Source: Bacilli bacterium (GTDB lineage Bacteria; Bacillota_I; Bacilli_A; ML615J-28; CAG-313). From it: 64,000 nt of DNA. Under the pieces are notes generated by a model, which did no database searches, had not been told where the DNA came from, and worked only from the letters and a program-made list of their open reading frames with translations. Where the stretch lies: NCBI GenBank assembly GCA_045536365.1, contig JAZSNL010000016.1, positions 46,003 through 110,002 of the forward strand. The letters run 5' to 3'. The first letter of the stretch is position 1; each line of letters begins with the position of its first letter. Positions 12,615 to 25,350 of this stretch are shown here, piece after piece. The translations under genes and the position numbers were made by a program.

Positions 12615-15600
12615 TTAAGCTAATCCTAACATCTCTAAAATAGATTTTGCAAGCGCAGATTCTTCAACTCTTTCTTTCAATTCAGTATTAGTTTCCAAGT
12701 TAAAATTATCTGGATCTGCATGATAAATTTCAAATACATCTTCTAAAATTACTGCTTCTTCCTCGAAATTTGCTTCACTTAAATCTATTTCACTACCTAA
12801 ATATTCAGAAGCAACTTCATTAATAACATCCTTTGCAAGTTCATTATTTTCAAGATTTTTCAATTCATCAACCAACTTTTGAACTGTTTCTTCTTCTGTC
12901 ATAGTTTCAGTTGTTAAATTAGTCATTGAATTAGCTAAATCAATTAAACCACCAATATTATCAGCTTGTTCATTTAACACATTTGGATCAGTAAAATCAT
13001 ATTTATATGTTCCGTCATCATTCTTAGGAAGTTTATCATATCCATTAACACCAAGAGTTTCAACTAAAACCGTTCCTAATACTTTACTTGCAATAACGCT
13101 TCCGCTAGCTTCTTTCATTATCGCGCTAACATCAGATCCTTTAATAGAAGATAAATCTTCTGCACCTAATAAGCTTTCACTTGCAATATCATAAACATTT
13201 AATGTTCTATTAATTTCGTTAGTCCAACCATTTGTTTTAATCAATTCTTTTTCAGCAGAATTAAATGTTAAATCAAATGATAAACTATCATCAATATTAG
13301 AAACTAATGTTCCGATTAAATCAAATATAATAGGCTCAAATATTTGAGATTCATTAAAGGCATCTAATACTTTACCTATTTGATTAATTGTTTCTTGATC
13401 TCTTTGACCTGTTTCAGGATCAACTTCTAATATTGTTGTAAAATCTAATGAGCTTAAATCTCCACCACATAAATTAGAAATTTCGATGATTACATTTGCT
13501 AATTTACCAGGTTCTGTTTCCCAATCAACATTTTCAATTTCAAGTGTAATTCCATATTCTTCTAACATTGAATTCAATTCAAACGTATCAATCAAGAAGT
13601 TCATTAATTCAGTTTCATTACCTTTAATTAATCCAATATCAAATATTCTTTCTAATAGGTTTTTAATAGCTTCAGGATTATTTAAATCAATATTTCCCTC
13701 TTCACCAAACAGAATATTTAAATCCTTTAATCCATAAATGATTTCTACAATATTAATCATTTCTGCTTTAAATTCTTCAGAAGTTGTATTTTTTAAAGCT
13801 TCAAAATTTAATATTCCTTGAAGCCCTTCAGGGATTACACTATCTTCTTTTCCTGCTTGTGAGTTATATAAACTTTCTAATAATAATACGCCAGCTTTTC
13901 TAAATAAATCTGATTCAGCTACTTTACTAACGATATCTAGAGTAAGATCTTTATTATCTATAAAGTATTCAAATGAAATATTTTCCGCATTAATAACAGG
14001 AATTACTGAAAGAATAATATCAGCGATTTTTTCCGGTTCAGTTTCCCAGTTAATTTGTAAGTCATCCATTACATTTTCAGGGACATATTCTTTAATTGCT
14101 TCAACGCTTAATAGTGTTTTGATTAGCCCTTCTTCATGTCCATCAATAACAGTTAAATTGAAAATATTTATTATACTTTCCTTAATTAAAACTTCTTCAT
14201 CTTCACTAATAGGATCTAGTTTTTGGCTAGTTCCGTTTATTAATTCTTTACCTACTCCATATATTTTTTGAACTGTATCAACTAACAACACACTATCGTC
14301 TTTTAAAATTTTAAGAAGGTTTTCTTCTGTTATTAATTCTTCTAAATATTGAGTATCAATTTTATCAATTTTAGCTACTAATTCAGACAGTTTTTCCACT
14401 GCAAAAGGTACACCTATCTTATTAATAATTTGTAATTTTAATAATGAATTAACAATATTACCAAAAGAATCTTTTAGTTTAGGGTCTTCAACAATACTTA
14501 ACGGATCATTGATATCTATTTTTAAATCAACTGCTGCTACTGCAACTTCTTGAATAACATCTATTAACGTATCCATTTCTTTATTAATATCTATTTCCTT
14601 AATGCCAGATAAATTAATTTCAACCCCTTCAAAGTCTCCATTATCAACCGCATAACATAAATATTCAAATCCAACAGGTAAAATTATTTTTACTGATTGA
14701 ATATTTTTTAATACATCACATATTTTAGTAACATCTTCTTCTGATACACCCGCAAAATCAAACATCACTTTTTCTTCAGTAACTTCTATTTTAGAAGTTA
14801 TAACTGGTATAATTTGTCTTAAATTAGCATATTCTTCTACAAAATCTAATTTACCGTGTTCTGTTTTAACTGTTAATAGGCTACCAATATATTTAGCATC
14901 TAAAGTTAAATCATTCTTTTTATCTCTTGTGATATTAAATATTTTTCTTGTAATACAAGAATCAAATTGATTATTAAATTCAGTAAATAATTCTTCTGTT
15001 GTTGAATTTGTTAAATCTTTATTAGGGGATTTTAAAAGCATTTCTAATAAGCTATTTAATCCACTCGTATCAGAACTAACAGTCACTTCTTCTGAATTTT
15101 CTGTGTTTTCAATAATTCCATATGTTTGTTCAAAATCATCAATTGCAAGTTTAGTAATTGATAATGTACCGAAAATTGGAATTAAAAACACAATAAAGAA
15201 AACTGCAAATTCTAAGAATCCCATCCCCATTCCTAATAAACGAGAAAATAATGTTTTTCTTTTCTTTACTTTCTTCCCTATTTTTTCATCAACTACTTTG
15301 TCATCAAAAATTAACATATTGAAAAAAGCGAGTATTAATCTTAGTATTGGTCCTATAATAGCAAATATTAAAATTGTACCTACTGTATAAATTACAAATT
15401 TTAAAATTCCTACAGCTACGCTTTCCGCAAAGACTAATAATTCACTATTTGGTACATCTACACTGCCGTTTGTATAAATGTTTTCTTGAATCAATGTCAC
15501 CGCATAGTCTTTAACTGAAGTGAATCCTTCAATAATATTGTATTTACTTATGTCTGTTTCTAATATTTTTACCGCGATACTGCCTAAAAAGATTGCGAGT

Positions 15601-15740
15601 AAAACAAAAGGAACAACTATTGATATTACTCTTCTTGTTGATTTATTAAACCCAATAATAAACCCTCTTAATAAACAAAAAACAAGAGCTATCAATACTA
15701 ATAAATCTAATCCTAAATTAATATATTGTAAAACTGACAT
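12615..15740 (-). CDS. CvpA-like membrane domain fused to an acidic helical repeat region. It is a shorter paralog of the giant protein (about 1,041 aa from the corrected start).
   Basis: ORF track 12615..15791. The internal Met at 15738-15740 has a GGAGG RBS 7 nt upstream and leaves a 34-nt gap to the murA stop, so it is the preferred start. The N-terminus LDLLVLIALVFCLLRGFIIGF... matches the CvpA LRGF motif, with four predicted TM helices. The C-terminal ~800 aa is rich in E/D/L/I/N with recurring motifs INWETEPEK and VDWETEPGK. Confidence 0.8.
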   Translation of the reverse strand: MSVLQYINLGLDLLVLIALVFCLLRGFIIGFNKSTRRVISIVVPFVLLAIFLGSIAVKILETDISKYNIIEGFTSVKDYAVTLIQENIYTNGSVDVPNSELLVFAESVAVGILKFVIYTVGTILIFAIIGPILRLILAFFNMLIFDDKVVDEKIGKKVKKRKTLFSRLLGMGMGFLEFAVFFIVFLIPIFGTLSITKLAIDDFEQTYGIIENTENSEEVTVSSDTSGLNSLLEMLLKSPNKDLTNSTTEELFTEFNNQFDSCITRKIFNITRDKKNDLTLDAKYIGSLLTVKTEHGKLDFVEEYANLRQIIPVITSKIEVTEEKVMFDFAGVSEEDVTKICDVLKNIQSVKIILPVGFEYLCYAVDNGDFEGVEINLSGIKEIDINKEMDTLIDVIQEVAVAAVDLKIDINDPLSIVEDPKLKDSFGNIVNSLLKLQIINKIGVPFAVEKLSELVAKIDKIDTQYLEELITEENLLKILKDDSVLLVDTVQKIYGVGKELINGTSQKLDPISEDEEVLIKESIINIFNLTVIDGHEEGLIKTLLSVEAIKEYVPENVMDDLQINWETEPEKIADIILSVIPVINAENISFEYFIDNKDLTLDIVSKVAESDLFRKAGVLLLESLYNSQAGKEDSVIPEGLQGILNFEALKNTTSEEFKAEMINIVEIIYGLKDLNILFGEEGNIDLNNPEAIKNLLERIFDIGLIKGNETELMNFLIDTFELNSMLEEYGITLEIENVDWETEPGKLANVIIEISNLCGGDLSSLDFTTILEVDPETGQRDQETINQIGKVLDAFNESQIFEPIIFDLIGTLVSNIDDSLSFDLTFNSAEKELIKTNGWTNEINRTLNVYDIASESLLGAEDLSSIKGSDVSAIMKEASGSVIASKVLGTVLVETLGVNGYDKLPKNDDGTYKYDFTDPNVLNEQADNIGGLIDLANSMTNLTTETMTEEETVQKLVDELKNLENNELAKDVINEVASEYLGSEIDLSEANFEEEAVILEDVFEIYHADPDNFNLETNTELKERVEESALAKSILEMLGLA

Positions 15741-15774
15741 GTTTCGCCTCCTAATTAGATTTATTATAGCACAC

Positions 15775-17025
15775 TTAATTTTCCTTTTCAATCATTATTT
15801 TCAATTTTTTTAATTTTTCTTCAATATCTTCATATCCCCTTTTGATAACTTCAAAATTGTTTATAGTTAGTTCTTTAGTTAATGCTGATAATAAAATTAA
15901 AGAAAAACCTCCTCTTAAATCTTTTGCGGTTGCAATGTTTATATTTAAAATACTTTCATCTATAACAATATCATTATTATGAATATAAATGTTTGCACCT
16001 GAAGAAACCAATTCTTCAATTTGTGAAGTTCTTTGTGGATATATTGTATCCGATATTTTTGATTTACCTTGTGCCTTTAACAATAATATTAATATTATTT
16101 GTTGTAAATCTGTTGGAAATTCGGGATATTCACCGGTTTTTATTGTTATAGGTTTTAATACATTAGGTGATTCTATAATAAGTTTTCTTTGTTCATATGT
16201 GATTCTAACATTCATTTTTCTTAATACTTCAATTACTTTTTCTAATTTACATGGATTAACATTTTCTAATATGACTTTACTTTTAGGTATTATCGATGAC
16301 AATATCATATAACTTCCAGCTTCAATTCTGTCAAATGGAATATCATATGTAGTTCCAAATAATTTTTTAACGCCATATATAACTAATTTATTTTCTTTAA
16401 ATAGAATATTAGAACCCATTTGATTTAACATTTCAATTACTGATAATACATCCGGTTCATGTGAATAGTTCTCTATTTCAACTATTTTATTTGAACAAAC
16501 TGTATTAAGTAAAATATTTATAGTTGTCCCTACACTAGGTTTAGGTAGTTTAATAGATATTCTTTTATTTTTTATTTTTCTTTTTTTAATTAATATATAT
16601 CCTTTTTTTAGTATTACTTTATATCCTAATTGTTTAAATGCTTCTAAATGATAATCAATAGGTCTAACTGAAAAATTACAACCTCCTGGTTGTTTTATTT
16701 TTATTTTTCCTTTTCTTGATAGAATTGATCCTATAAAATAATAGGATGCTCGAATGGAAGCTACTTTATCTGATAGGATATTTGTCGATATTTTTTTGAA
16801 ATTCAATCTTAATCTTTTATTTAGTTTGTTATAATCTAATTTCCCTTTTGCTTCTATCGCAATTTCCATCATATTTATTACATCCGTAATAAAAGGAACA
16901 TTATTTAATATCACATCTTCATTAGTTAAAATTGAAGCTGCTATGAGTGGTAAAGTTGTATTTTTAGAACCACTTATATTAATCGTTCCTTTTAAATAAT
17001 TTGGCATTTTTATTTTCATTTTCAT
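15775..17025 (-). CDS. murA: UDP-N-acetylglucosamine 1-carboxyvinyltransferase
   Basis: N-terminal ISGSKNTTLPLIAASIL and the active-site Cys context KQPGGCNFSVRPID are typical of MurA, at 416 aa. Confidence 0.85.
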   Translation of the reverse strand: MKMKIKMPNYLKGTINISGSKNTTLPLIAASILTNEDVILNNVPFITDVINMMEIAIEAKGKLDYNKLNKRLRLNFKKISTNILSDKVASIRASYYFIGSILSRKGKIKIKQPGGCNFSVRPIDYHLEAFKQLGYKVILKKGYILIKKRKIKNKRISIKLPKPSVGTTINILLNTVCSNKIVEIENYSHEPDVLSVIEMLNQMGSNILFKENKLVIYGVKKLFGTTYDIPFDRIEAGSYMILSSIIPKSKVILENVNPCKLEKVIEVLRKMNVRITYEQRKLIIESPNVLKPITIKTGEYPEFPTDLQQIILILLLKAQGKSKISDTIYPQRTSQIEELVSSGANIYIHNNDIVIDESILNINIATAKDLRGGFSLILLSALTKELTINNFEVIKRGYEDIEEKLKKLKIMIEKEN

Positions 17026-17106: not shown

Positions 17107-17135
17107 ATGTAATGTCGGAAAGTAAGGCGATGAAT

Positions 17136-18257
17136 ATGAAGTACAGAATCGAGAAAGATATTCTCGGAGAGAAGAAAATGCCAAGTGAAGTATATTATGG
17201 CATATATACTCTACGAGGCAAAGAAAATTTTCAAATCACTAAACGCGGTATATGTAGACAATTAATCAAATCAGTAACTATTGTTAAAAAAGCAGCAGCT
17301 AAAGCAAATTATGAAGCCGGTGCATTAGAAGAAAAAGTTGCTGATTCAATCATTTTAGCTTGTGATGAAATATTAAATGGAAGACTTCACGGACAATTTG
17401 TAACTGATTTAATTCAAGGTGGTGCTGGTGAAAGCATTAATATGAATGCAAATGAAGTTATTGCGAATAGAGCTAATGAAATGTTAGGTGGAGAAAAAGG
17501 AAAATATGAATTTGTTGATCCTATTAAACACGTTAACTACGGACAAGCTACTAATGATGTTATTCCTACTGCAGGTAAAATAGCAGTAATTAAACAATTA
17601 AAAAAATTAATTGTTGAATTAAAAAAATTAGAAAATTCTTTTAAAACTAAATCCAAAGAATTTGGGTTTACAAAAACAAGCGAAGAATTCGCTGCTATCG
17701 CAACATTATTATCAAGAGACATTAAACGTATCGAAGGATCTATTAATGATTTATCAGAAATAAACTTAGGCATTAATGCTTTAAAACAAAATACTCGTGG
17801 AGCTGATAAATATTTTAAAAAGATTATTATATATATTAATAAATACTCTGGAGAAACTTTAAGACATAGTAAAAACTTACTTGATTCTACTAGAAGTCTA
17901 GATAGTTTCTTATGGGCAAGCAGTTGTTTGAAAACTCTAGCTGTTGGATTATCAAAAGCCGCTAATGATATTAATATTTTATCTGATCCAGAACATCGTG
18001 AAATTGTCTTACCTATTGTTCAGATCGATAGCAGTAATAAAGAATATAATCCTGTTATAATTGAAATGGTTAACCAAGTAGCATTTTATGTTATGGGATT
18101 AGACGTTACTGTTACAAAAGCTATTGAAGCAGGACAATTATCAAATAATATCTTTTTACCAATTATCTTAACTTCTTTATTTGAATCTATTTCTGTTTTG
18201 AGAAGAGCTTCTAGAACTTTAAGAGAATTAGTAATCGATGACACTAAATTAGCATAA
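17136..18257 (+). CDS. Aspartase/fumarase class II family protein, divergent: degenerate SS loop and no C-terminal domain
   Basis: MKYRIEKDILGE matches the FumC/AspA N-terminus (MEYRIERDTMGE). GGAGESINMNANEVIANRA corresponds to the conserved TGSGTQSNMNVNEVIANRA and NYGQATNDVIP to SQSSNDTFP. The signature GSSIMPGKVNPTQCE is replaced by DSSNKEYNPVIIE. The protein is about 373 aa versus about 460 for FumC. Confidence 0.7.
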   Translation: MKYRIEKDILGEKKMPSEVYYGIYTLRGKENFQITKRGICRQLIKSVTIVKKAAAKANYEAGALEEKVADSIILACDEILNGRLHGQFVTDLIQGGAGESINMNANEVIANRANEMLGGEKGKYEFVDPIKHVNYGQATNDVIPTAGKIAVIKQLKKLIVELKKLENSFKTKSKEFGFTKTSEEFAAIATLLSRDIKRIEGSINDLSEINLGINALKQNTRGADKYFKKIIIYINKYSGETLRHSKNLLDSTRSLDSFLWASSCLKTLAVGLSKAANDINILSDPEHREIVLPIVQIDSSNKEYNPVIIEMVNQVAFYVMGLDVTVTKAIEAGQLSNNIFLPIILTSLFESISVLRRASRTLRELVIDDTKLA

Positions 18258-18259
18258 TA

Positions 18260-18283
18260 AAAGAGCATCAATTGATGCTCTTT
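18260..18283. terminator. Bidirectional intrinsic terminator between the convergent fumarase-like and GH5 genes
   Basis: Perfect 10-bp stem aaagagcatc / gatgctcttt with loop aatt, followed by a T-run on the plus strand and an A-run before it. Confidence 0.5.
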
Positions 18284-19732
18284 TTATTTTAATCCAGCTT
18301 TTGATCTTGTCCATTGCTTATACCAAATTCCCCATTCTTTTAAATGTTCATCTGAGAAATCTGTTAATGTATCATCACTATGTTTAATAATTGAAGCAGA
18401 ACCTGCACTATTAGAAATGTTCCACGCAACATAACTAATATTTCTTTGGTCTAATATTTTATACCAGTTTTGAATTGATGAATAGTTCATCGCTCCATCA
18501 CCTGATGATTCCATACCGCCGTGTTCACTTATAAATACAGGGAATCCTTTATCATAAGCATTTGAAACTTGATATGTATTTTTATGTCCTGCCGCATAGA
18601 AATGATATGTATACATAATATTTTCATATCCTACTAAAGGATCTGCCATTACCGCATTTAAATTAGCTGTCCAGTTTGGATTTCCAACTAGAATAATTCC
18701 ATCTGTGTTTTCTCTAATTTTAGGGATTACTAATTCTGCATATGTTTTACATTGTTTCCATGTAGTTGAACCGTTTGGTTCATTCATAATTTCATATAAA
18801 ACATTATCATAATCTTTAAATTCTTTACTTATTCTACTAAAGAAGTCCATTGCTTCATCTTTATAGTACAAAGGGTTTTTATCATTTGCATCTTCAGCAC
18901 CTACCATGTGCCAGTCAATGATAACGTATAATCCCGCTTCTGTTGCGTATTTAACACCTTGAACTACTAAATTATATAGTCTTTCTTTATTAGCTTCACT
19001 TGTACAATATCCATCTTCTGAAGTATACATTGCAAGTCGAATAACATTTATACCAAATGTATTTTTCAAACTTGAGATTGTTCCTTTGTTAACATATCTA
19101 CTAAACCATTGTAATCCATGTGTACTTAAGCCAATAAGTTGGAATTTTTCACCATTTTTATCAACTAAGTCTGGACCACTTACACTTATTTTACCATGAG
19201 TAAAATAGTCATTTGATAATTTAATAGGAGTTGGAGCTTCATCGTATTTTGCAATGATAGTCATATCTGAATCAAGAACGATAAATTCTTTTGAGTATGA
19301 TGAACCATTTATTCTCCATGAAGAAAAAGCGTATTCTTCAATTGGCAAAATGTAATCTTCTAATCTTAGTTCTGTCCATGGTAAAACTTCGTATTGTTCT
19401 TCAAACATGTCATTATAGTTAATTGTTAGTATAACTGTTCTTTGTTTTTCAAATTCAGCTACTAGCGTTAAATCTTTTGTGACACTAATTTGTGATGTAA
19501 ATAAATTACCTTGTTCATCTTTCCACCCTACAAAGTTGTGTAATTCTTTTTCAGCTTTTGGTAATGAAGATGCTTCTAATATTTGATCTTTTTCTAACTC
19601 AATTGTTTGAAATAATTCTCCATCTACTAATAAATTTACTTTATAGATTTTAGGTCCTTTATCTTTACAACCTATCATAAATAAAGAAATAATTAAAACA
19701 GAAATTATTGTTATAATTGTCTTACGCTTCAT
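18284..19732 (-). CDS. Lipoprotein glycoside hydrolase family 5 endoglucanase (cellulase) with N-terminal Listeria-Bacteroides-type (Flg_new) repeats, copy 1
   Basis: Signal peptide plus lipobox LFMIGC. GH5 catalytic motifs are present: LIGLSTHGLQWF, IMNEPNG (acid/base Glu) and FISEHGG (nucleophile Glu). The N-terminal region carries FVGWKDEQGNLF-type repeats. Confidence 0.8.
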   Translation of the reverse strand: MKRKTIITIISVLIISLFMIGCKDKGPKIYKVNLLVDGELFQTIELEKDQILEASSLPKAEKELHNFVGWKDEQGNLFTSQISVTKDLTLVAEFEKQRTVILTINYNDMFEEQYEVLPWTELRLEDYILPIEEYAFSSWRINGSSYSKEFIVLDSDMTIIAKYDEAPTPIKLSNDYFTHGKISVSGPDLVDKNGEKFQLIGLSTHGLQWFSRYVNKGTISSLKNTFGINVIRLAMYTSEDGYCTSEANKERLYNLVVQGVKYATEAGLYVIIDWHMVGAEDANDKNPLYYKDEAMDFFSRISKEFKDYDNVLYEIMNEPNGSTTWKQCKTYAELVIPKIRENTDGIILVGNPNWTANLNAVMADPLVGYENIMYTYHFYAAGHKNTYQVSNAYDKGFPVFISEHGGMESSGDGAMNYSSIQNWYKILDQRNISYVAWNISNSAGSASIIKHSDDTLTDFSDEHLKEWGIWYKQWTRSKAGLK

Positions 19733-19910
19733 TTGTCTTACCCTTTCTTAATAAATATGTTCCTAGTAAAAATATACCAGCACTTGAATAACTTGTTATT
19801 AATAAAATATATTTCATAAAATCTTTTTTAATTAAAATCATACATACTATTAATGATATAAAAAGTAATATTGAAAAAACTGTTAATAGATAACCTAATA
19901 TTTTATTCAT
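19722..19910 (-). CDS. Small two-TM membrane protein (62 aa), hypothetical
   Basis: Hydrophobic ORF that overlaps the neighbouring genes by a few nt on each side, consistent with translational coupling. Confidence 0.35.
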   Translation of the reverse strand: MNKILGYLLTVFSILLFISLIVCMILIKKDFMKYILLITSYSSAGIFLLGTYLLRKGKTNEA

Positions 19911-21934
19911 TATTCCACCTTAGTTATATTATTGCCTACTTCTACTAAAGCAGACATATTTCGTTCAATTTTAATTTCTTGGTTCGTTGACTCTGTATTG
20001 TAATATGCTAATTGTCCATCTTGCATTTTCACATAGTAATCATTACCATAAACATTTTCCATATCTATTATCGCATTATTTGTAATCATTGAAATAGTTT
20101 CAATTTTTGTATCTTTTAAAATAACAGAACCTTTTTCTTGACCAGTGACTGTTAGCGATTTAATACTTGATTGTAAGCCATATGGATTTTCATCATTAGG
20201 TAAATCATTTTCTACCGCAAATTTAGTTGATAATTTATTATAAACTGTAATCACTGGGTATAATTGTATTTTATTAAATTCTTTTTCAAATTCATTTAAT
20301 TCAACATCTTCTAATGGATTTCCTTTTTTATCAGGAATATTTTCTGAAAGATTGTATAAATATATATTTCCAGAGTTTCCTTCTAATTTAATATTATTAC
20401 TTTTTACATATTCACATATAAAATATGAACCGCTGACAAATGCATCTAATTTGTCTTTTATTATTGTTTTAGTAATAGTAAAAGATGAAGTAGCTTGAAC
20501 AGATACAGTACATAAACTCATATCACTTTCATACATTGTTGTTATTGTGCTTGTTGAGTAATAATTAAAGCTATAACAATTCATTCTGTTTATTGTCATT
20601 TTACCGGAATTGCTGGATAAGTTTACATTAGGAATGTTTTCATTTTTATCATTAAATAAAGGATTAGTAAATTCAATATTCTTAATATCAATATTAGCAG
20701 AACTATTAATTATATTTAATTTTTCACCTTTTGTATTATGAATATTAATATTTCCTTCTAATACATTAATTGAAATATTTTTTATATTATTTGATGTATT
20801 TTTATAAGCTTCTTCTTCTGTTGATGTAATAAGTGTACCTTTATTTGTATTAATTGTTAAAGATTCAATATTGGAATTATATATTTGATATCCACCAGTT
20901 GTAGTTGTTAGTGAAACATCGCCAAGGTTTGATGATAAAATATTAACATTTCCAATTGAAATTGCTAAATCTAAATCAATATAATTATATTTTGATGGTA
21001 ATTTAATAACAACTGTTTGTGTTGGTTCTTTTAATAAATCTAAGAAGTCATATGTTTTATTATCATCAAATTCAATAGTTAAAACATTGTTTTCTGTTTT
21101 TAAATTAAAGTTATGTTCTAATTCATGATAATAAGTGATTAGTATATTATCAATTGTATCATCTGTTGTAATAGTAAAATTTGCGGTAGAGCCTTTATAT
21201 ACTATTTTTTCTAAATTATTTTCAGTTACTTCATACTCTTCTGTAATACTATTGATATTATTATTACTACGATATAAGTATCCTTTTGTTGTAATATTTA
21301 ATACTGCTGAACCGATTAAAATAAAGAAAACGACTATTGCGATTTTCACTAATACTTTTTCTTTTTTAAAGAGTTTATTGATTGTTCCACTTATTGAGAA
21401 ATTTGCAATTTTTTCATTAATTTCTTTCTTTTTTAATTGTTGATATGATCCTGTTATAAAATACATAATTATTAAATAACATAAATCAACAAAATATATA
21501 AATATTACTAGTTCAACTATTAGTAATAATATTCCCGATATTATTAATGATATTTGATCTAATAGTTCAAATTTGTTTGTTTGTGTTAATAATTTAATTA
21601 AATTAACTGACATTGATCCAAAGATAAATGTTATATAAGCAAATATTGCAAGTATTATTAATGATACAACTATTGAAGTAATAAAGTTAACTATTGCTTG
21701 TCGTTTCATTGCTTTTTTTCTTAATTCAATATAAGCAACACCTTTTGTTTTATAAATATCTTCAGCTATTGCTTTAGGACTAGGAAATGAAGCGATAACT
21801 TTTTCTTCTTTTTCTCCATAATCAATAGCAGTATTTATTTTTTGTTGATAAAACTTAATTATTTCATTTTGATCTTTTGGTTTTAAATATTTAAGTTCTT
21901 CAGCTAATTGTGTTAAAAATTCTCTTTGATCCAT
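19910..21934 (-). CDS. DUF1700-like N-terminal domain, transmembrane segments and a C-terminal DUF4097-like (putative adhesin/LiaG-like beta-rich) repeat domain
   Basis: The N-terminus MDQREFLTQLAEELKYLKPKDQNEIIKFYQQKI...SPKAIAEDIYK matches the DUF1700 pattern. Several TM helices occupy residues ~90-210. The C-terminal half is Asn/Thr/Ser-rich with repeated GNVNI/ITTTTGG-type beta-strand repeats. Confidence 0.55.
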   Translation of the reverse strand: MDQREFLTQLAEELKYLKPKDQNEIIKFYQQKINTAIDYGEKEEKVIASFPSPKAIAEDIYKTKGVAYIELRKKAMKRQAIVNFITSIVVSLIILAIFAYITFIFGSMSVNLIKLLTQTNKFELLDQISLIISGILLLIVELVIFIYFVDLCYLIIMYFITGSYQQLKKKEINEKIANFSISGTINKLFKKEKVLVKIAIVVFFILIGSAVLNITTKGYLYRSNNNINSITEEYEVTENNLEKIVYKGSTANFTITTDDTIDNILITYYHELEHNFNLKTENNVLTIEFDDNKTYDFLDLLKEPTQTVVIKLPSKYNYIDLDLAISIGNVNILSSNLGDVSLTTTTGGYQIYNSNIESLTINTNKGTLITSTEEEAYKNTSNNIKNISINVLEGNINIHNTKGEKLNIINSSANIDIKNIEFTNPLFNDKNENIPNVNLSSNSGKMTINRMNCYSFNYYSTSTITTMYESDMSLCTVSVQATSSFTITKTIIKDKLDAFVSGSYFICEYVKSNNIKLEGNSGNIYLYNLSENIPDKKGNPLEDVELNEFEKEFNKIQLYPVITVYNKLSTKFAVENDLPNDENPYGLQSSIKSLTVTGQEKGSVILKDTKIETISMITNNAIIDMENVYGNDYYVKMQDGQLAYYNTESTNQEIKIERNMSALVEVGNNITKVE

Positions 21935-22011
21935 AATTTATATCTCCTATATTTATTTTACCAAAAAAGTGCTTCAAAGTCAATTAATAGAGTTTCGTTA
22001 TTATATAAAAT

Positions 22012-22038
22012 AAAACACTATGTTTAACATAGTGTTTT
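22012..22038 (-). terminator. Hairpin terminator downstream of GH5 copy 2
   Basis: 11-bp stem aaaacactatg / catagtgtttt with loop tttaa, 3 nt after the stop codon. Confidence 0.45.
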
Positions 22039-22040
22039 AA

Positions 22041-23486
22041 TTATTTCATTTGTGCTTTGTTTCTTGTCCATTGCTTATACCATTTTCCCCACTCAGTTAA
22101 ATGTTCATCTGAGAAGTCAGTTAAAGTATCATTTCCGTTCTTAATAATTGATGATGAGCATAAGCTATTAGATAAATTCCACGCAACATAACTAATATTT
22201 CTTTGGTCTAATATTTTATACCAGTTTTGAATTGATGAATAATCGATTGCACCATCACCTGATGATTCCATACCACCGTGTTCACTTATAAATACAGGGA
22301 AACCTTTAGAGTAAGCATTAGTTACTTGATATGTATTTTTATGATCTGCCGCATAGAAATGATATGTATACATAATATTTTCATATCCTGTTATTGGATC
22401 AGCCATTACCGCATTCAAATTTGAAGTCCAGTTTGGATTACCTAATAGAATAATACCATCTGTATTTTCTCTAATTTTAGGGATTACTAATTCTGCATAT
22501 GTTTTACATTGTTTCCATGTAGTTGAACCATTTGGTTCATTCATAATTTCATATAAAACATTATCATAATCTTTAAATTCTTTACTTATTCTACTAAAGA
22601 AATCCATTGCTTCATCTTTATAATATAATGGGTTTTTATCATTTACATCTTCAGCACCTACCATGTGCCAGTCAATAATAACATAAAGGCCCACTTCTGT
22701 TGCGTATTTAACACCTTGAACTACTAAGTTATATAGTCTTTCGCGATTATTAGGATTATCACAATAGCCATCCTCTGAGGTTGTTAAAGCTAGTCTAATA
22801 ACATTAATTCCATAAGTGTTTTTAATTGCCGCAAAAGTTCCTTTGTTAACATATCTACTAAACCATTGTAATCCATGTGTACTTAAACCAATAAGCTGGA
22901 ATTTTTCACCATTTTTATCGACTAAGTCTGGACCACTTACACTTATTTTACCATGAGTAAAATAGTCATTATCTAAATTAAGTGGTGTTGGTGAATCCAT
23001 ATATATAGCGTCTATTCTCATATCAGAATCTAATATGATAAATTCTTTTGAATATGAAGAACCATTGATTTTCCATGATGCAAAAGCATATTCTTCTATT
23101 GGTAAAATATATTGATCTAAATATATTTCTGTCCATGTTAAAACTTCATATTGTTCTTCGAACATATCGTTATAATTAATAGTTAAGATGGCGGTAGGTA
23201 GTTTTTGGAATTCAGCTGTTATTGTTTTATCACAAGTAATTACTATGTCAGTTGTTATTAAATTACCTAGTTCATCTTTCCATCCAATAAAACGATATAA
23301 ATCTTTATTTGCTGTAGGAAAAGAATTATATTGTAATATTTCATTTGAAATTATTTCTTTTGTTTCTACTGTTTTATTATCAATAATAAATTTTACTTCG
23401 TATGTTTCTTCTTTATTCTTACAGCCTAATAAAAATAGTGAACAAATAATAATAGAAAGAATTGATATCACAAATCTCTTTTTCAT
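22041..23486 (-). CDS. Lipoprotein GH5 endoglucanase with Flg_new-type repeats, copy 2 (paralog of 18284..19732)
   Basis: ORF track 22041..23528. The preferred start is the Met at 23484-23486 (MKKRFVISILSIIICSLFLLGC, signal peptide plus lipobox) with an AGGAGG RBS. The catalytic half is about 90% identical to copy 1 at nucleotide level, for example at 22660-22760 versus 18900-19000. Confidence 0.8.
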   Translation of the reverse strand: MKKRFVISILSIIICSLFLLGCKNKEETYEVKFIIDNKTVETKEIISNEILQYNSFPTANKDLYRFIGWKDELGNLITTDIVITCDKTITAEFQKLPTAILTINYNDMFEEQYEVLTWTEIYLDQYILPIEEYAFASWKINGSSYSKEFIILDSDMRIDAIYMDSPTPLNLDNDYFTHGKISVSGPDLVDKNGEKFQLIGLSTHGLQWFSRYVNKGTFAAIKNTYGINVIRLALTTSEDGYCDNPNNRERLYNLVVQGVKYATEVGLYVIIDWHMVGAEDVNDKNPLYYKDEAMDFFSRISKEFKDYDNVLYEIMNEPNGSTTWKQCKTYAELVIPKIRENTDGIILLGNPNWTSNLNAVMADPITGYENIMYTYHFYAADHKNTYQVTNAYSKGFPVFISEHGGMESSGDGAIDYSSIQNWYKILDQRNISYVAWNLSNSLCSSSIIKNGNDTLTDFSDEHLTEWGKWYKQWTRNKAQMK

Positions 23487-23511: not shown

Positions 23512-23529
23512 TATGCTTTTAAAAGCATA
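23512..23529 (-). terminator. Hairpin after the tRNA pair
   Basis: Perfect palindrome tatgctttt / aaaagcata, followed on the minus strand by a T-run (complement of 23497-23511). Confidence 0.4.
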
Positions 23530-23542
23530 CAAATTTTAAAGA

Positions 23543-23618
23543 TGGTAGGGCTAAATGGATTCGAACCATTGAAATGACGGAGTCAAAGTCCGTTGCCTTA
23601 CCGCTTGGCTATAGCCCT
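23543..23618 (-). tRNA. tRNA-Gln (anticodon UUG), 76 nt with encoded CCA
   Basis: Reverse complement reads AGGGCUAUAGCCAAGCGGUAAGGCAACGGACUUUGACUCCGUCAUUUCAAUGGUUCGAAUCCAUUUAGCCCUACCA. It folds as a cloverleaf with anticodon loop CUUUGAC, T-loop TTCGAAT and a 7-bp acceptor stem, and is almost identical to B. subtilis tRNA-Gln. Confidence 0.9.
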
Positions 23619-23625
23619 ATAAAGA

Positions 23626-23710
23626 TGGTGGAAGGGGACGGATTCGAACCATCGAACTCGGAGAGAGCGGATTTACAGTCCGCCGCGTTTAGCCACTTCG
23701 CTACCCTTCC
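23626..23710 (-). tRNA. tRNA-Tyr (anticodon GUA), 85 nt with long variable arm and encoded CCA
   Basis: Reverse complement reads GGAAGGGUAGCGAAGUGGCUAAACGCGGCGGACUGUAAAUCCGCUCUCUCCGAGUUCGAUGGUUCGAAUCCGUCCCCUUCCACCA. The anticodon loop is CUGUAAA and it is near-identical to Bacillus tRNA-Tyr. Confidence 0.9.
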
Positions 23711-24559: not shown

Positions 24560-25066
24560 TTATAACATATTTTGTTCTAAATAGCAAATATTAACTATTT
24601 TTTCTAATTTTTTTACATAATTTATTCTTTTCAACATTCCTTCTTTTATTATAAATTTAAGACTATTGAATATATTAATAAGAATCTTTTTAAATAATGA
24701 ATATATAATCTGATCATAAAATAAATTAATTACAAATTTAGAAATATAGGGCTGGATTTTATTAATAAGAATTATTACTTTATCTAATAGTTTGTGTAAT
24801 ATATTCTGAATATAGCTAAAGTATATAAACCAACTGAATATAAAAAATAAGATAAAATAGATTGGAATATACCCATCTGATAATTTATAACTAAATACAT
24901 ATGTAATATATATTTGTATGCTTATAAAAATTATTTCACTTATTCTTTTTCTTTTAGATAGTTTATTATTTAAATATATAAAAACATCATATGATATTGA
25001 TAAATAAAAACCAAATATTATTAATCCTAATATAATTATTAGTTCTTCTTTTAATGGATGAATCAT
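24560..25066 (-). CDS. yabQ: Membrane protein, probable spore cortex protein YabQ homolog
   Basis: Hydrophobic 168-aa ORF whose stop overlaps the yabP start (ATGA overlap), the same arrangement as Bacillus yabP-yabQ. The assignment rests on context. Confidence 0.45.
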   Translation of the reverse strand: MIHPLKEELIIILGLIIFGFYLSISYDVFIYLNNKLSKRKRISEIIFISIQIYITYVFSYKLSDGYIPIYFILFFIFSWFIYFSYIQNILHKLLDKVIILINKIQPYISKFVINLFYDQIIYSLFKKILINIFNSLKFIIKEGMLKRINYVKKLEKIVNICYLEQNML

Positions 25067-25350
25067 TTAAATACTTTTCCAAAGAAATTTCCTTTTTCTT
25101 TTTTCTTTTCACTATTTAAATAAATCATTGAATCAATATTACCACTTATCCAAAGTATACCTTTTTCAATATCTAAATGTTGCATTTCTAAATTTGAACC
25201 TTTTACTGATAGTATTCCTAAATTAGTATTAATAACAAATTCTTCACTATTTAGACTTTCTATTTTTTTTACTCCTGTTACCTCTAAATTAGTTCTATTT
25301 TTTAATTTTAATTCTTGTTTGTTCATTTCGTTTTTCACATCATAATTCAT
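25063..25350 (-). CDS. yabP: Sporulation protein YabP
   Basis: The 95-aa protein LEVTGVKKIESLNSEEFVINTNLGILSVKGSNLEMQHLDIEKGILWISGNI matches the YabP family pattern (VxGV..VxSFD.EEF...T..G.L.I.G.NL....L). Confidence 0.8.
   Translation of the reverse strand: MNYDVKNEMNKQELKLKNRTNLEVTGVKKIESLNSEEFVINTNLGILSVKGSNLEMQHLDIEKGILWISGNIDSMIYLNSEKKKEKGNFFGKVFK

Follow-up and report, generated by a model that had tools for sequence, protein, structure and literature searches.

The tufA and tufB genes of enterobacteria are the classic case of concerted evolution by gene conversion. In a separate field, the HAAS domain has been proposed to signal to PadR-type factors and is said always to neighbour a standalone PadR, and the toastrack domain (DUF4097) has been placed intracellularly (Ravi et al, 2024; PMC11237479). 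Here we describe a locus in which two genes for lipoproteins with a cellulase domain of family GH5 flank a gene for a HAAS/toastrack membrane protein. It lies in a 64,000-nucleotide stretch of DNA from a Bacilli bacterium (contig JAZSNL010000016.1, positions 46,003 to 110,002), which was analysed as a whole and is referred to below as the window. The two GH5 genes, copy A and copy B, are most probably old paralogues of the GH5 subfamily 2 (GH5_2) type whose catalytic parts have been kept alike by gene conversion, a reading that needs only ordinary biology. Read along the minus strand from 23710 to 18284, the genes of the locus are:

23626..23710, minus strand: tRNA-Tyr (GTA), found with ARAGORN; first gene of the upstream transcription unit
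23543..23618, minus strand: tRNA-Gln (TTG), found with ARAGORN
22041..23486, minus strand: GH5 copy B (upstream type), open reading frame (ORF) of 481 amino acids, with NEP at 22527-22541 and ISEHGG at 22272-22289
19910..21934, minus strand: HAAS/toastrack membrane protein, ORF of 674 amino acids with Pfam matches
19722..19910, minus strand: two-helix membrane protein, ORF of 62 amino acids
18284..19732, minus strand: GH5 copy A (downstream type), ORF of 482 amino acids, with NEP at 18770-18784 and ISEHGG at 18515-18532

A preliminary description of this DNA had given the same coordinates for the two GH5 genes, had them bracket a DUF1700/DUF4097 membrane protein and a small two-helix protein, and had noted tRNA genes immediately upstream. 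All of this was confirmed: both ORFs are found there on the minus strand, DUF1700 corresponds to HAAS, and tRNA-Tyr and tRNA-Gln occupy 23543-23710 on the same strand as the GH5 genes. For copy B, a longer ORF reaching 23528 was rejected as the gene, and the start was set at 23486 because the ATG at this position follows AAAGGAGG and an extension would overlap the hairpin past tRNA-Gln.

In a pairwise alignment, the two copies are 80% identical at the nucleotide level and 78% at the amino acid level, with 87% nucleotide identity in the catalytic part and 68% in the N-terminal part, where amino acid identity is only 58%. The level of about 90% previously given for the genes as a whole is confined to two tracts, 18413-18967 (92%) and 19103-19237 (91%), separated by a segment (18968-19102) that is 71% identical; exact runs shared by the copies are 50-71 nucleotides long. 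The example that had been offered for the near identity, 18890-18990 versus 22650-22750, is three nucleotides out of register and only 32% identical as written, but at the true offset of 3757 the stretch is 90% identical to 22647-22747. Sliding identity along the two genes shows a mosaic pattern, in which three elements matter here:

18413..18967, minus strand: main tract attributed to conversion, codons 256-440 of copy A; partner in copy B at 22170-22724
19103..19237, minus strand: second tract attributed to conversion, codons 166-210; partner in copy B at 22860-22994
22725..22859, minus strand: copy-B-specific segment, codons 210-254, reading 'RLALTTSEDGYCDNPNNRE'; 71% identical to copy A in nucleotides, with flanks at 91-92%

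The relationships of these segments were examined by a quartet test, counting parsimony-informative sites among copies A and B of the window and copies A and B of a related locus, L006 or L004 (the L-numbered loci used for comparison are short-read metagenome contigs from independent assemblies). Codons 256-440 paired the copies of the same genome at 57 sites against 4 with L006 and at 65 against 1 with L004, and codons 166-210 did so by 9:0 and 7:1. In codons 211-255, orthologues were paired instead, by 17:6 with L006 and 16:4 with L004. Neighbour-joining bootstrap trees gave topologies in agreement with these counts; their support values were unreliable (below 80% for near-identical sequences) and were not relied on. 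For the window pair, synonymous divergence (dS) amounts to about 1.2 in three of the six segments (codons 23-165, 211-255, and 441-482) and to 0.24-0.39 in codons 166-210 (0.30) and 256-440. A segment permutation test that tolerates mismatches was significant with all sites (p = 0.0005) and with third positions alone (p = 0.01). A tract was also found in L006, whose paralogues are identical at 88 consecutive polymorphic sites across codons 346-439 (dS 0.01, p ≤ 0.0003). The independent assembly L028 has the same profile, and in both loci a tract of about 285 nucleotides is 99-100% identical between the paralogues, with flanks at 65-90%.

The two copies lie about 3.8 kb apart in direct orientation. 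Recombination or inversion between the repeats had been suggested; the mosaic conversion signal supports exchange, while direct repeats such as these cannot give an inversion and allow deletion, duplication or conversion. Conversion would have repeatedly homogenised most of the catalytic domain, with the N-terminal modules, the C-terminal tip, and the 45-codon segment staying copy-specific. As a side observation, the window and the corresponding genes of L003 (L003:5329-6777 and L003:1575-3020) differ at 39 sites over both cellulase genes. Three of these sites (alignment positions 864, 867, and 960) carry reciprocally swapped alleles, window copy A matching L003 copy B and window copy B matching L003 copy A, and at codon 173 of copy B all three bases differ between the two, the L003 version being that of copy A. 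These swapped sites reflect either ongoing exchange within the species or mis-phasing in the assembly.

The age of the pair was judged from the related contigs, which share a neighbourhood of MgtC, the tRNAs, the locus itself, a short aspA-like gene, MurA, a protein of about 1040 amino acids, and a giant protein of about 4900. The cellulase-bearing loci have these layouts:

L003: GH5, HAAS/toastrack, small protein, GH5; same species as the window, 98-100% identity
L006, L004, and L028: GH5, HAAS/toastrack, small protein, GH5; HAAS protein 51-52% and MurA 61-62% identical to the window
L022, L001, L002, and L027: tRNA, HAAS, small protein, GH5, GH5, the upstream copy missing; HAAS protein 68% and MurA 76% identical to the window

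L001 was assigned to the third layout because its upstream 91 nucleotides encode the tail of the small protein. In these sister lineages the two cellulase genes stand head to tail, 9 nucleotides apart, downstream of the small protein (L022:12218-15124, L001:92-2998, L027:1167-4073), and the second of them mixes the upstream-type signature ALTT with the downstream-type TSEANKE, a hybrid that would fit a history of exchange. Two further contigs, L026 and L024, carry distant HAAS/toastrack homologues (27-30% identity) and no cellulase: in L026 the tRNA pair is followed by HAAS and then by full-length aspA and MurA, and in L024, as also in L022, HAAS comes directly after tRNA-Gln, without an intervening cellulase. 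Ahead of the locus, the tRNA pair is also found in L003, L006, L007, L022, and L026. Since cellulase-free homologues adjoin the same tRNA pair or tRNA-Gln, the tRNA-HAAS/toastrack unit is ancestral, and the cellulases are later and lineage-specific additions whose number and position have since changed. Copy B sits exactly between two hairpins that adjoin in L022.

The pair had been called recently duplicated, which these data contradict. The layout is kept in lineages with identities to the window of 62% in MurA and about 51% in the HAAS protein, dS between the paralogues is about 1.2 outside the tracts, and codons 211-255 retain an orthologous signature of copy type (17:6 and 16:4 sites). 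The cellulases would have been added around an older tRNA-Tyr/tRNA-Gln/HAAS unit before the split of lineages that now differ by about 38% in MurA. Between lineages whose MurA (window 15775-17025) is 61-62% identical, the catalytic domains of the cellulases are 81-86% identical; because dS is saturated (about 1-1.5), strong amino acid constraint, and not recent transfer, explains this identity. When species-representative genomes were scanned with the HAAS alignment, none of the 105 pattern matches was a relative, and hence the clade is not represented at this locus in that collection.

The segment between the tracts distinguishes the two types of copy. In codons 211-255, downstream copies carry the signature 'RLAMYTSEDGYCTSEANKE', and upstream copies RL(A/S)LTTSE(D/G)GYCDNP..., which is common to the upstream copies of L006 and L004. 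The Tyr of AMYT in copy A, Tyr236, follows the conserved His of the THG triad by 31 residues. The solved GH5_2 enzymes also keep this Tyr, whereas copy B and all upstream-type copies have Thr in its place; the loop next to it reads TSEANK in copy A and DNPNNR in copy B. The spacing equals that of His70 and Tyr101 in AaCel5A, for which docking listed both residues among those predicted to coordinate the substrate, and His70 was equated with the −2-subsite His35 of BaCel5A (PMC11926323). By this spacing to the conserved His, the Tyr of copy A probably corresponds to Tyr101 of AaCel5A; a literature search on Tyr66 of BaCel5A found nothing direct, and the equivalence comes from the residue list of that article together with the spacing. 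Our inference is a difference between the two enzymes at a substrate subsite, across which selection would have resisted conversion. The Tyr/Thr difference suggests that the enzymes may have divided their labour, a possibility open to testing for this pair of surface cellulases from an uncultured ruminant-gut Bacilli lineage.

Both copies match the GH5 profile PF00150 strongly over its positions 1-270 of 272, with E values of 3e-53 and 3e-52 and scores of 181.4 and 178 bits where the cut-off is 23.5. The best solved relatives are endoglucanases of Bacillus, Thermobifida or Erwinia type (6gjf, 4xzw, 1a3h/1h5v, 3pzt, 1lf1, 2cks, 1egz, and 1tvn; E values 1e-69 to 1e-28), all of which we take to belong to GH5 subfamily 2; the PDB titles of 1tvn and 1egz carry the label 'family GH 5-2'. 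An AlphaFold model of copy A (predicted local distance difference test, pLDDT, 90.6) has the (beta/alpha)8 barrel fold, and in Foldseek it matched 6gjf and 1a3h with target TM-scores of 0.93-0.94 and a root-mean-square deviation of 1.6-1.8 Å. As claimed earlier, the catalytic residues are intact: in the alignment with 6gjf and 4xzw, the acid/base Glu of NEP and the nucleophile Glu of ISEHGG fall on the catalytic Glu residues in both copies, and the conserved Arg, His, His-x-Tyr, and Trp are retained as well. The catalytic and conserved GH5 residues are invariant among 28 family members. Judged from their sequences, both enzymes are probably endo-beta-1,4-glucanases of the GH5 subfamily 2 type, and each would cleave chains of beta-1,4-glucan through the ordinary retaining mechanism with two glutamates. 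A side observation concerns the residue after the nucleophile: it is His in both copies (ISEHGG; 18515-18532 and 22272-22289) and nearly invariantly so in the family of these cellulases, but Trp (TEWG) in the solved GH5_2 enzymes of the alignment.

The nearest full-length cellulase in species-representative genomes is 53% identical and comes from 'Bacilli bacterium RGIG9028' (water deer rectum). It adjoins a transglutaminase-like gene in an unrelated genomic context, which makes it uninformative for synteny; its upstream genes of 113-121 and 592 amino acids were considered as PadR and HAAS and rejected, being P-II and a transglutaminase-like protein. The exact sequence of window copy A had no match in the assembly index.

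Lipoprotein signal peptides had also been proposed for both copies, and this was borne out when the lipobox was checked. Each has a basic and then hydrophobic signal peptide ending in G-C, and Cys22 is invariant in the 28 family members. Copy A fits the G+LPPv2 lipobox pattern, and copy B misses it solely at position −2 (Leu), a residue that the looser PROSITE-type lipobox permits there. Each enzyme is probably tethered through Cys22 on the outer face of the membrane. The proposal of FxGW repeats of the Flg_new type fared less well. With the Flg_new profile (PF09479), copy A scored 19.5 bits, below the cut-off of 27, and copy B gave no match; among family members, however, 15 of 20 match at E ≤ 0.01 (best 6e-7), and Flg_new_2 is found in 6 of the 20. 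The model of copy A contains two beta modules, at residues 29-96 and 100-165. Repeats of this type in the window copies are plausible but weakly supported; two such beta modules would hold the enzyme away from the membrane.

Sequence signals divide the locus into two candidate transcription units:

23787-23759, minus strand: promoter-like site TTTACA-17-TATAAT, read from the sequence, ahead of tRNA-Tyr
23513..23528, minus strand: weak hairpin (ATGCTTTTAAAAGCAT plus T-run), read from the sequence, between tRNA-Gln and the ribosome-binding site of copy B
22011..22039, minus strand: terminator-like hairpin of 13 pairs plus T-run, directly after copy B
21955..21983, minus strand: promoter-like site TTGACT-17-TG-n-TAAAAT, ahead of the HAAS gene
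18259..18284, no strand assigned: hairpin of 11 pairs between the convergent copy A and aspA-like genes, likely a two-way terminator

Directly before copy B there was no match to a promoter and no room for one, and for this reason the tRNA promoter probably serves copy B by read-through, with the transcript ending at the hairpin of copy B itself. The weak hairpin also follows tRNA-Gln in L022, and the one at the 3′ position of copy B is kept in all lineages, including L022, which lacks copy B. Ahead of the HAAS gene, five loci with HAAS proteins 51-68% identical share the promoter block ATTAATTGACTTT...TTTTTG.TAAAATAA without variation. The stop codon of the HAAS gene overlaps the start of the 62-amino-acid gene (ATGA), the end of which overlaps the start of copy A by 11 nucleotides. 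From the invariant promoter and these overlapping stop and start codons, copy A appears to be the last gene of a three-gene operon (HAAS/toastrack, small protein, GH5).

Some points weigh against our reading of the locus. A GENECONV-style exact-run test on third positions of the window pair was not significant (p = 0.19), strong purifying selection adds to the similarity of the copies (non-synonymous divergence, dN, of 0.014-0.06 in the tracts), and the comparison set consists entirely of short-read metagenomes, in which near-identical paralogues can be mis-phased. As to function, the substrate is deduced from family membership, and the link between the HAAS/toastrack protein and the cellulases from gene order, in a family that also exists without cellulases.

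This last link leads to the alternative that survives best, namely that the three genes of the putative operon form a functional module in which the membrane protein senses or scaffolds beta-glucan breakdown and its HAAS domain signals to a PadR encoded elsewhere. In the 674-amino-acid protein, HAAS (PF22564) reaches 41.8 bits (cut-off 27) over profile positions 1-54 of 55, and the DUF4097 toastrack (PF13349) 69 bits (cut-off 22.9). Its AlphaFold model (pLDDT 86.6) shows the HAAS helices, three long membrane helices, and then a beta-helical toastrack, with helices at 66-117, 124-168, and 194-216 and beta structure over some 440 residues (230-666). The best Foldseek matches of the toastrack are DUF4097 'putative adhesin' structures (4opw, 3ljy, 3jx8, and 4qrk), at TM-scores that are low from the difference in size. 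The loop before the last membrane helix (163-197) is rich in Lys, with nine K/R residues. Given three membrane helices and this loop, the toastrack domain is most likely outside the cell, opposite HAAS and on the same side as the enzymes. Across proteins with an overall identity of 50%, residues 1-80 of HAAS hardly vary. The 62-amino-acid protein has no Pfam family (a scan at E ≤ 1 returned only noise); it is conserved in every cellulase-bearing lineage (L022, L006, L004, and L028; motif CMILIKK.FMKYLLL) and absent beside the cellulase-free HAAS homologues of L024 and L026.

Much of this would suit a module: every lineage with cellulases retains the overlaps of stop and start codons, the promoter is invariant, the toastrack is predicted to share the outside of the cell with the lipoproteins, and a near-invariant HAAS region joined to a divergent toastrack is what would be expected of a fixed cytoplasmic partner and a changing external ligand. 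HAAS domains have, moreover, been proposed to signal to PadR-type factors (PMC11237479). The same article regards the toastrack as intracellular, in conflict with the topology inferred here. No PadR gene was found among the scanned small ORFs of the 64-kb window, beyond which the genome may hold one, or in the Pfam-annotated flanks of L022, L024, L026, L003, L006, and L028; the missing adjacent partner is mildly unusual. The pairing of HAAS with cellulases is also secondary, because HAAS/toastrack homologues occur without them, and the whole proposal draws on sequence and predicted structure. We consider the module unlikely, and its stronger form, a dedicated surface module in which an extracellular toastrack handles beta-glucan breakdown and signals without an adjacent PadR, rather doubtful. 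That the 674-amino-acid protein senses or organises anything for the enzymes is conjecture; the link of toastrack and cellulase, conserved in the clade and secondary in origin, could be functional or could reflect promoter borrowing. If true, a dedicated module would take toastrack proteins beyond envelope stress into a new role and would define a branch of the HAAS family uncoupled from PadR.

We see even less room for the view that no conversion took place and that the catalytic halves are alike solely through strong purifying selection, with the N-terminal modules free to drift. The very low dN of the catalytic domain and the non-significant exact-run test given above would agree with it, as would catalytic domains that remain 81-86% identical between lineages with MurA at 62%. 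However, synonymous divergence falls three- to five-fold inside the tracts, adjacent segments group in opposite ways (17:6 for orthology versus 57:4 for the same genome), and the tract of about 285 nucleotides in L006 and L028 stands out sharply from its flanks. Purifying selection is insufficient, because synonymous states that the paralogues of one genome share and their orthologues lack cannot result from selection at the protein level. Since significance for the window pair arises only with mismatches allowed, its tracts are not recent.

The preliminary description had read the locus as a recently duplicated accessory island for glycan degradation. As an alternative to our reading, this would mean horizontal acquisition next to the tRNA genes, with copies that are still similar because little time has passed. 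Part of this stands: the cellulases are lineage-specific, being absent from the distant relatives L024 and L026 that share the flanking genes, their number and position vary between sister lineages, tRNA genes are adjacent, and identical stretches reach 71 nucleotides. The remainder is very improbable. Lineages with MurA at 62% identity keep the layout, and MurA identities of 61-76% rule out that the related contigs are the same species; the signatures of copy type are orthologous across lineages; and a dS of about 1.2 in half of the segments, with N-terminal parts 58% identical in amino acids, speaks against youth. The adjacency of tRNA and HAAS is ancestral and independent of the cellulases. 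No integrase or mobility genes, flanking direct repeats or unusual base composition were found at the locus (GC content is about 20-37% per kb across the window and 22-30% in the locus block), and blastn against plasmids and phages matched only the tRNAs. All lineages sampled in the clade have the block, with only the cellulases varying in position and number, which is not the picture of a tRNA-integrated island.

It is extremely improbable that short-read assemblers created the pattern by switching between near-identical paralogues or misjoining contigs: exact runs of 50-71 nucleotides can mislead assemblers, several related contigs break near the locus, and the three reciprocally swapped sites between the window and L003 lie inside the most identical stretch, as mis-phasing would give, but the same layout and identity profile recur in independent assemblies from different samples and studies (window/L003 and L006/L028), both copies have intact frames, distinct N-termini, and distinct flanks, and the contig breaks coincide with the tRNA genes, not with the cellulases. 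If, as we conclude, old paralogues are kept alike by conversion, the similarity between neighbouring copies is a poor clock here, because the pair evolves in concert; what seemed a fresh duplication or island would be an old pair.

Around the locus, the window contains MgtC, YabP/YabQ, LysS, the aspA-like gene, and MurA. The sporulation genes YabP and YabQ lie at 24560-25350 on the minus strand; together with MurA, also in the window, they point to a walled and probably spore-forming Firmicute despite the very low GC content. The record names of the related contigs point to ruminant-gut studies, and the nearest named relatives are metagenome-assembled genomes from ruminant guts. We place the locus on the chromosome of an uncultured, low-GC, probably spore-forming Bacilli lineage of ruminant guts. 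The ORF list is empty over the first 12.4 kb because a single giant minus-strand gene fills positions 1 to about 12400 and runs off the edge of the window; its counterparts in related contigs encode 4861-4910 amino acids, with no Pfam match on record. It is adjoined by a gene for a 1058-amino-acid protein (12615-15791, minus strand), also without any Pfam match. Convergent with copy A, the aspA-like lyase gene (17112-18257, plus strand) is a conserved degenerate form. Compared with the full-length homologue of 473 amino acids in L026, its product lacks 13 residues including the GRTHLQEA motif, has an altered GSSIMPGK loop (DSS--NKE), and misses about 90 residues at the C-terminus. It is 79-92% identical among lineages whose HAAS proteins share only 51-68%, was seen only in the clade that bears cellulases, and appears to be a non-catalytic derivative maintained by selection.

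Several described systems can be set beside this locus. The 674-amino-acid protein can be compared with the HAAS-PadR dyads and with toastrack proteins such as LiaG and YvlB; its architecture of HAAS, membrane helices, and toastrack is among those described for them (PMC11237479). Compared with these, it has no PadR gene adjacent to it or in the annotated flanks of the related loci, and its toastrack would lie outside the cell and not inside, where Ravi et al place it (PMC11237479). The envelope-stress settings of LiaG and YvlB also differ, in that neither PspC nor LiaI-LiaF is nearby and the neighbours are cellulases and a novel 62-amino-acid protein; the LiaG model NF049997 scores 33.5 bits on the protein, far from its equivalog cut-off of 285. 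For specialists, the interest lies in a HAAS/toastrack gene that lacks the PadR partner said to be universal and appears to be translationally coupled to a cellulase.

For the enzymes, the RuGH5a xanthanase of Ruminococcaceae UCG13 likewise joins, in a gut anaerobe, an extracellular GH5 domain to Flg_new repeats, which are small and of the beta-grasp type (bioRxiv 10.1101/2021.06.02.446819). RuGH5a falls outside any GH5 subfamily, has three carbohydrate-binding modules, and is far larger, whereas the present proteins are compact (482 amino acids), predicted to be lipid-anchored, and of the GH5_2 type; unlike the named Flg_new repeats of RuGH5a, the match of the window copies is weak and below the Pfam threshold. 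Over the whole catalytic domain, the closest counterparts are Cel5A of Bacillus agaradhaerens (1A3H/1H5V), EglS of Bacillus subtilis (3PZT), and the reconstructed ancestral Cel5A (6GJF), with E values of 1e-61 to 1e-69. In place of a C-terminal cellulose-binding module, the present putative lipoproteins have two N-terminal Flg_new-like modules. Finally, as in concerted evolution of the tufA/tufB kind, old duplicates of the same genome are closer to each other than to their orthologues over part of their length. Here, in contrast to tufA and tufB, the copies lie 3.8 kb apart in direct orientation, conversion is partial, and a substrate-site segment is apparently protected, which would make the locus a clean and small example of partial gene conversion with one such segment spared.

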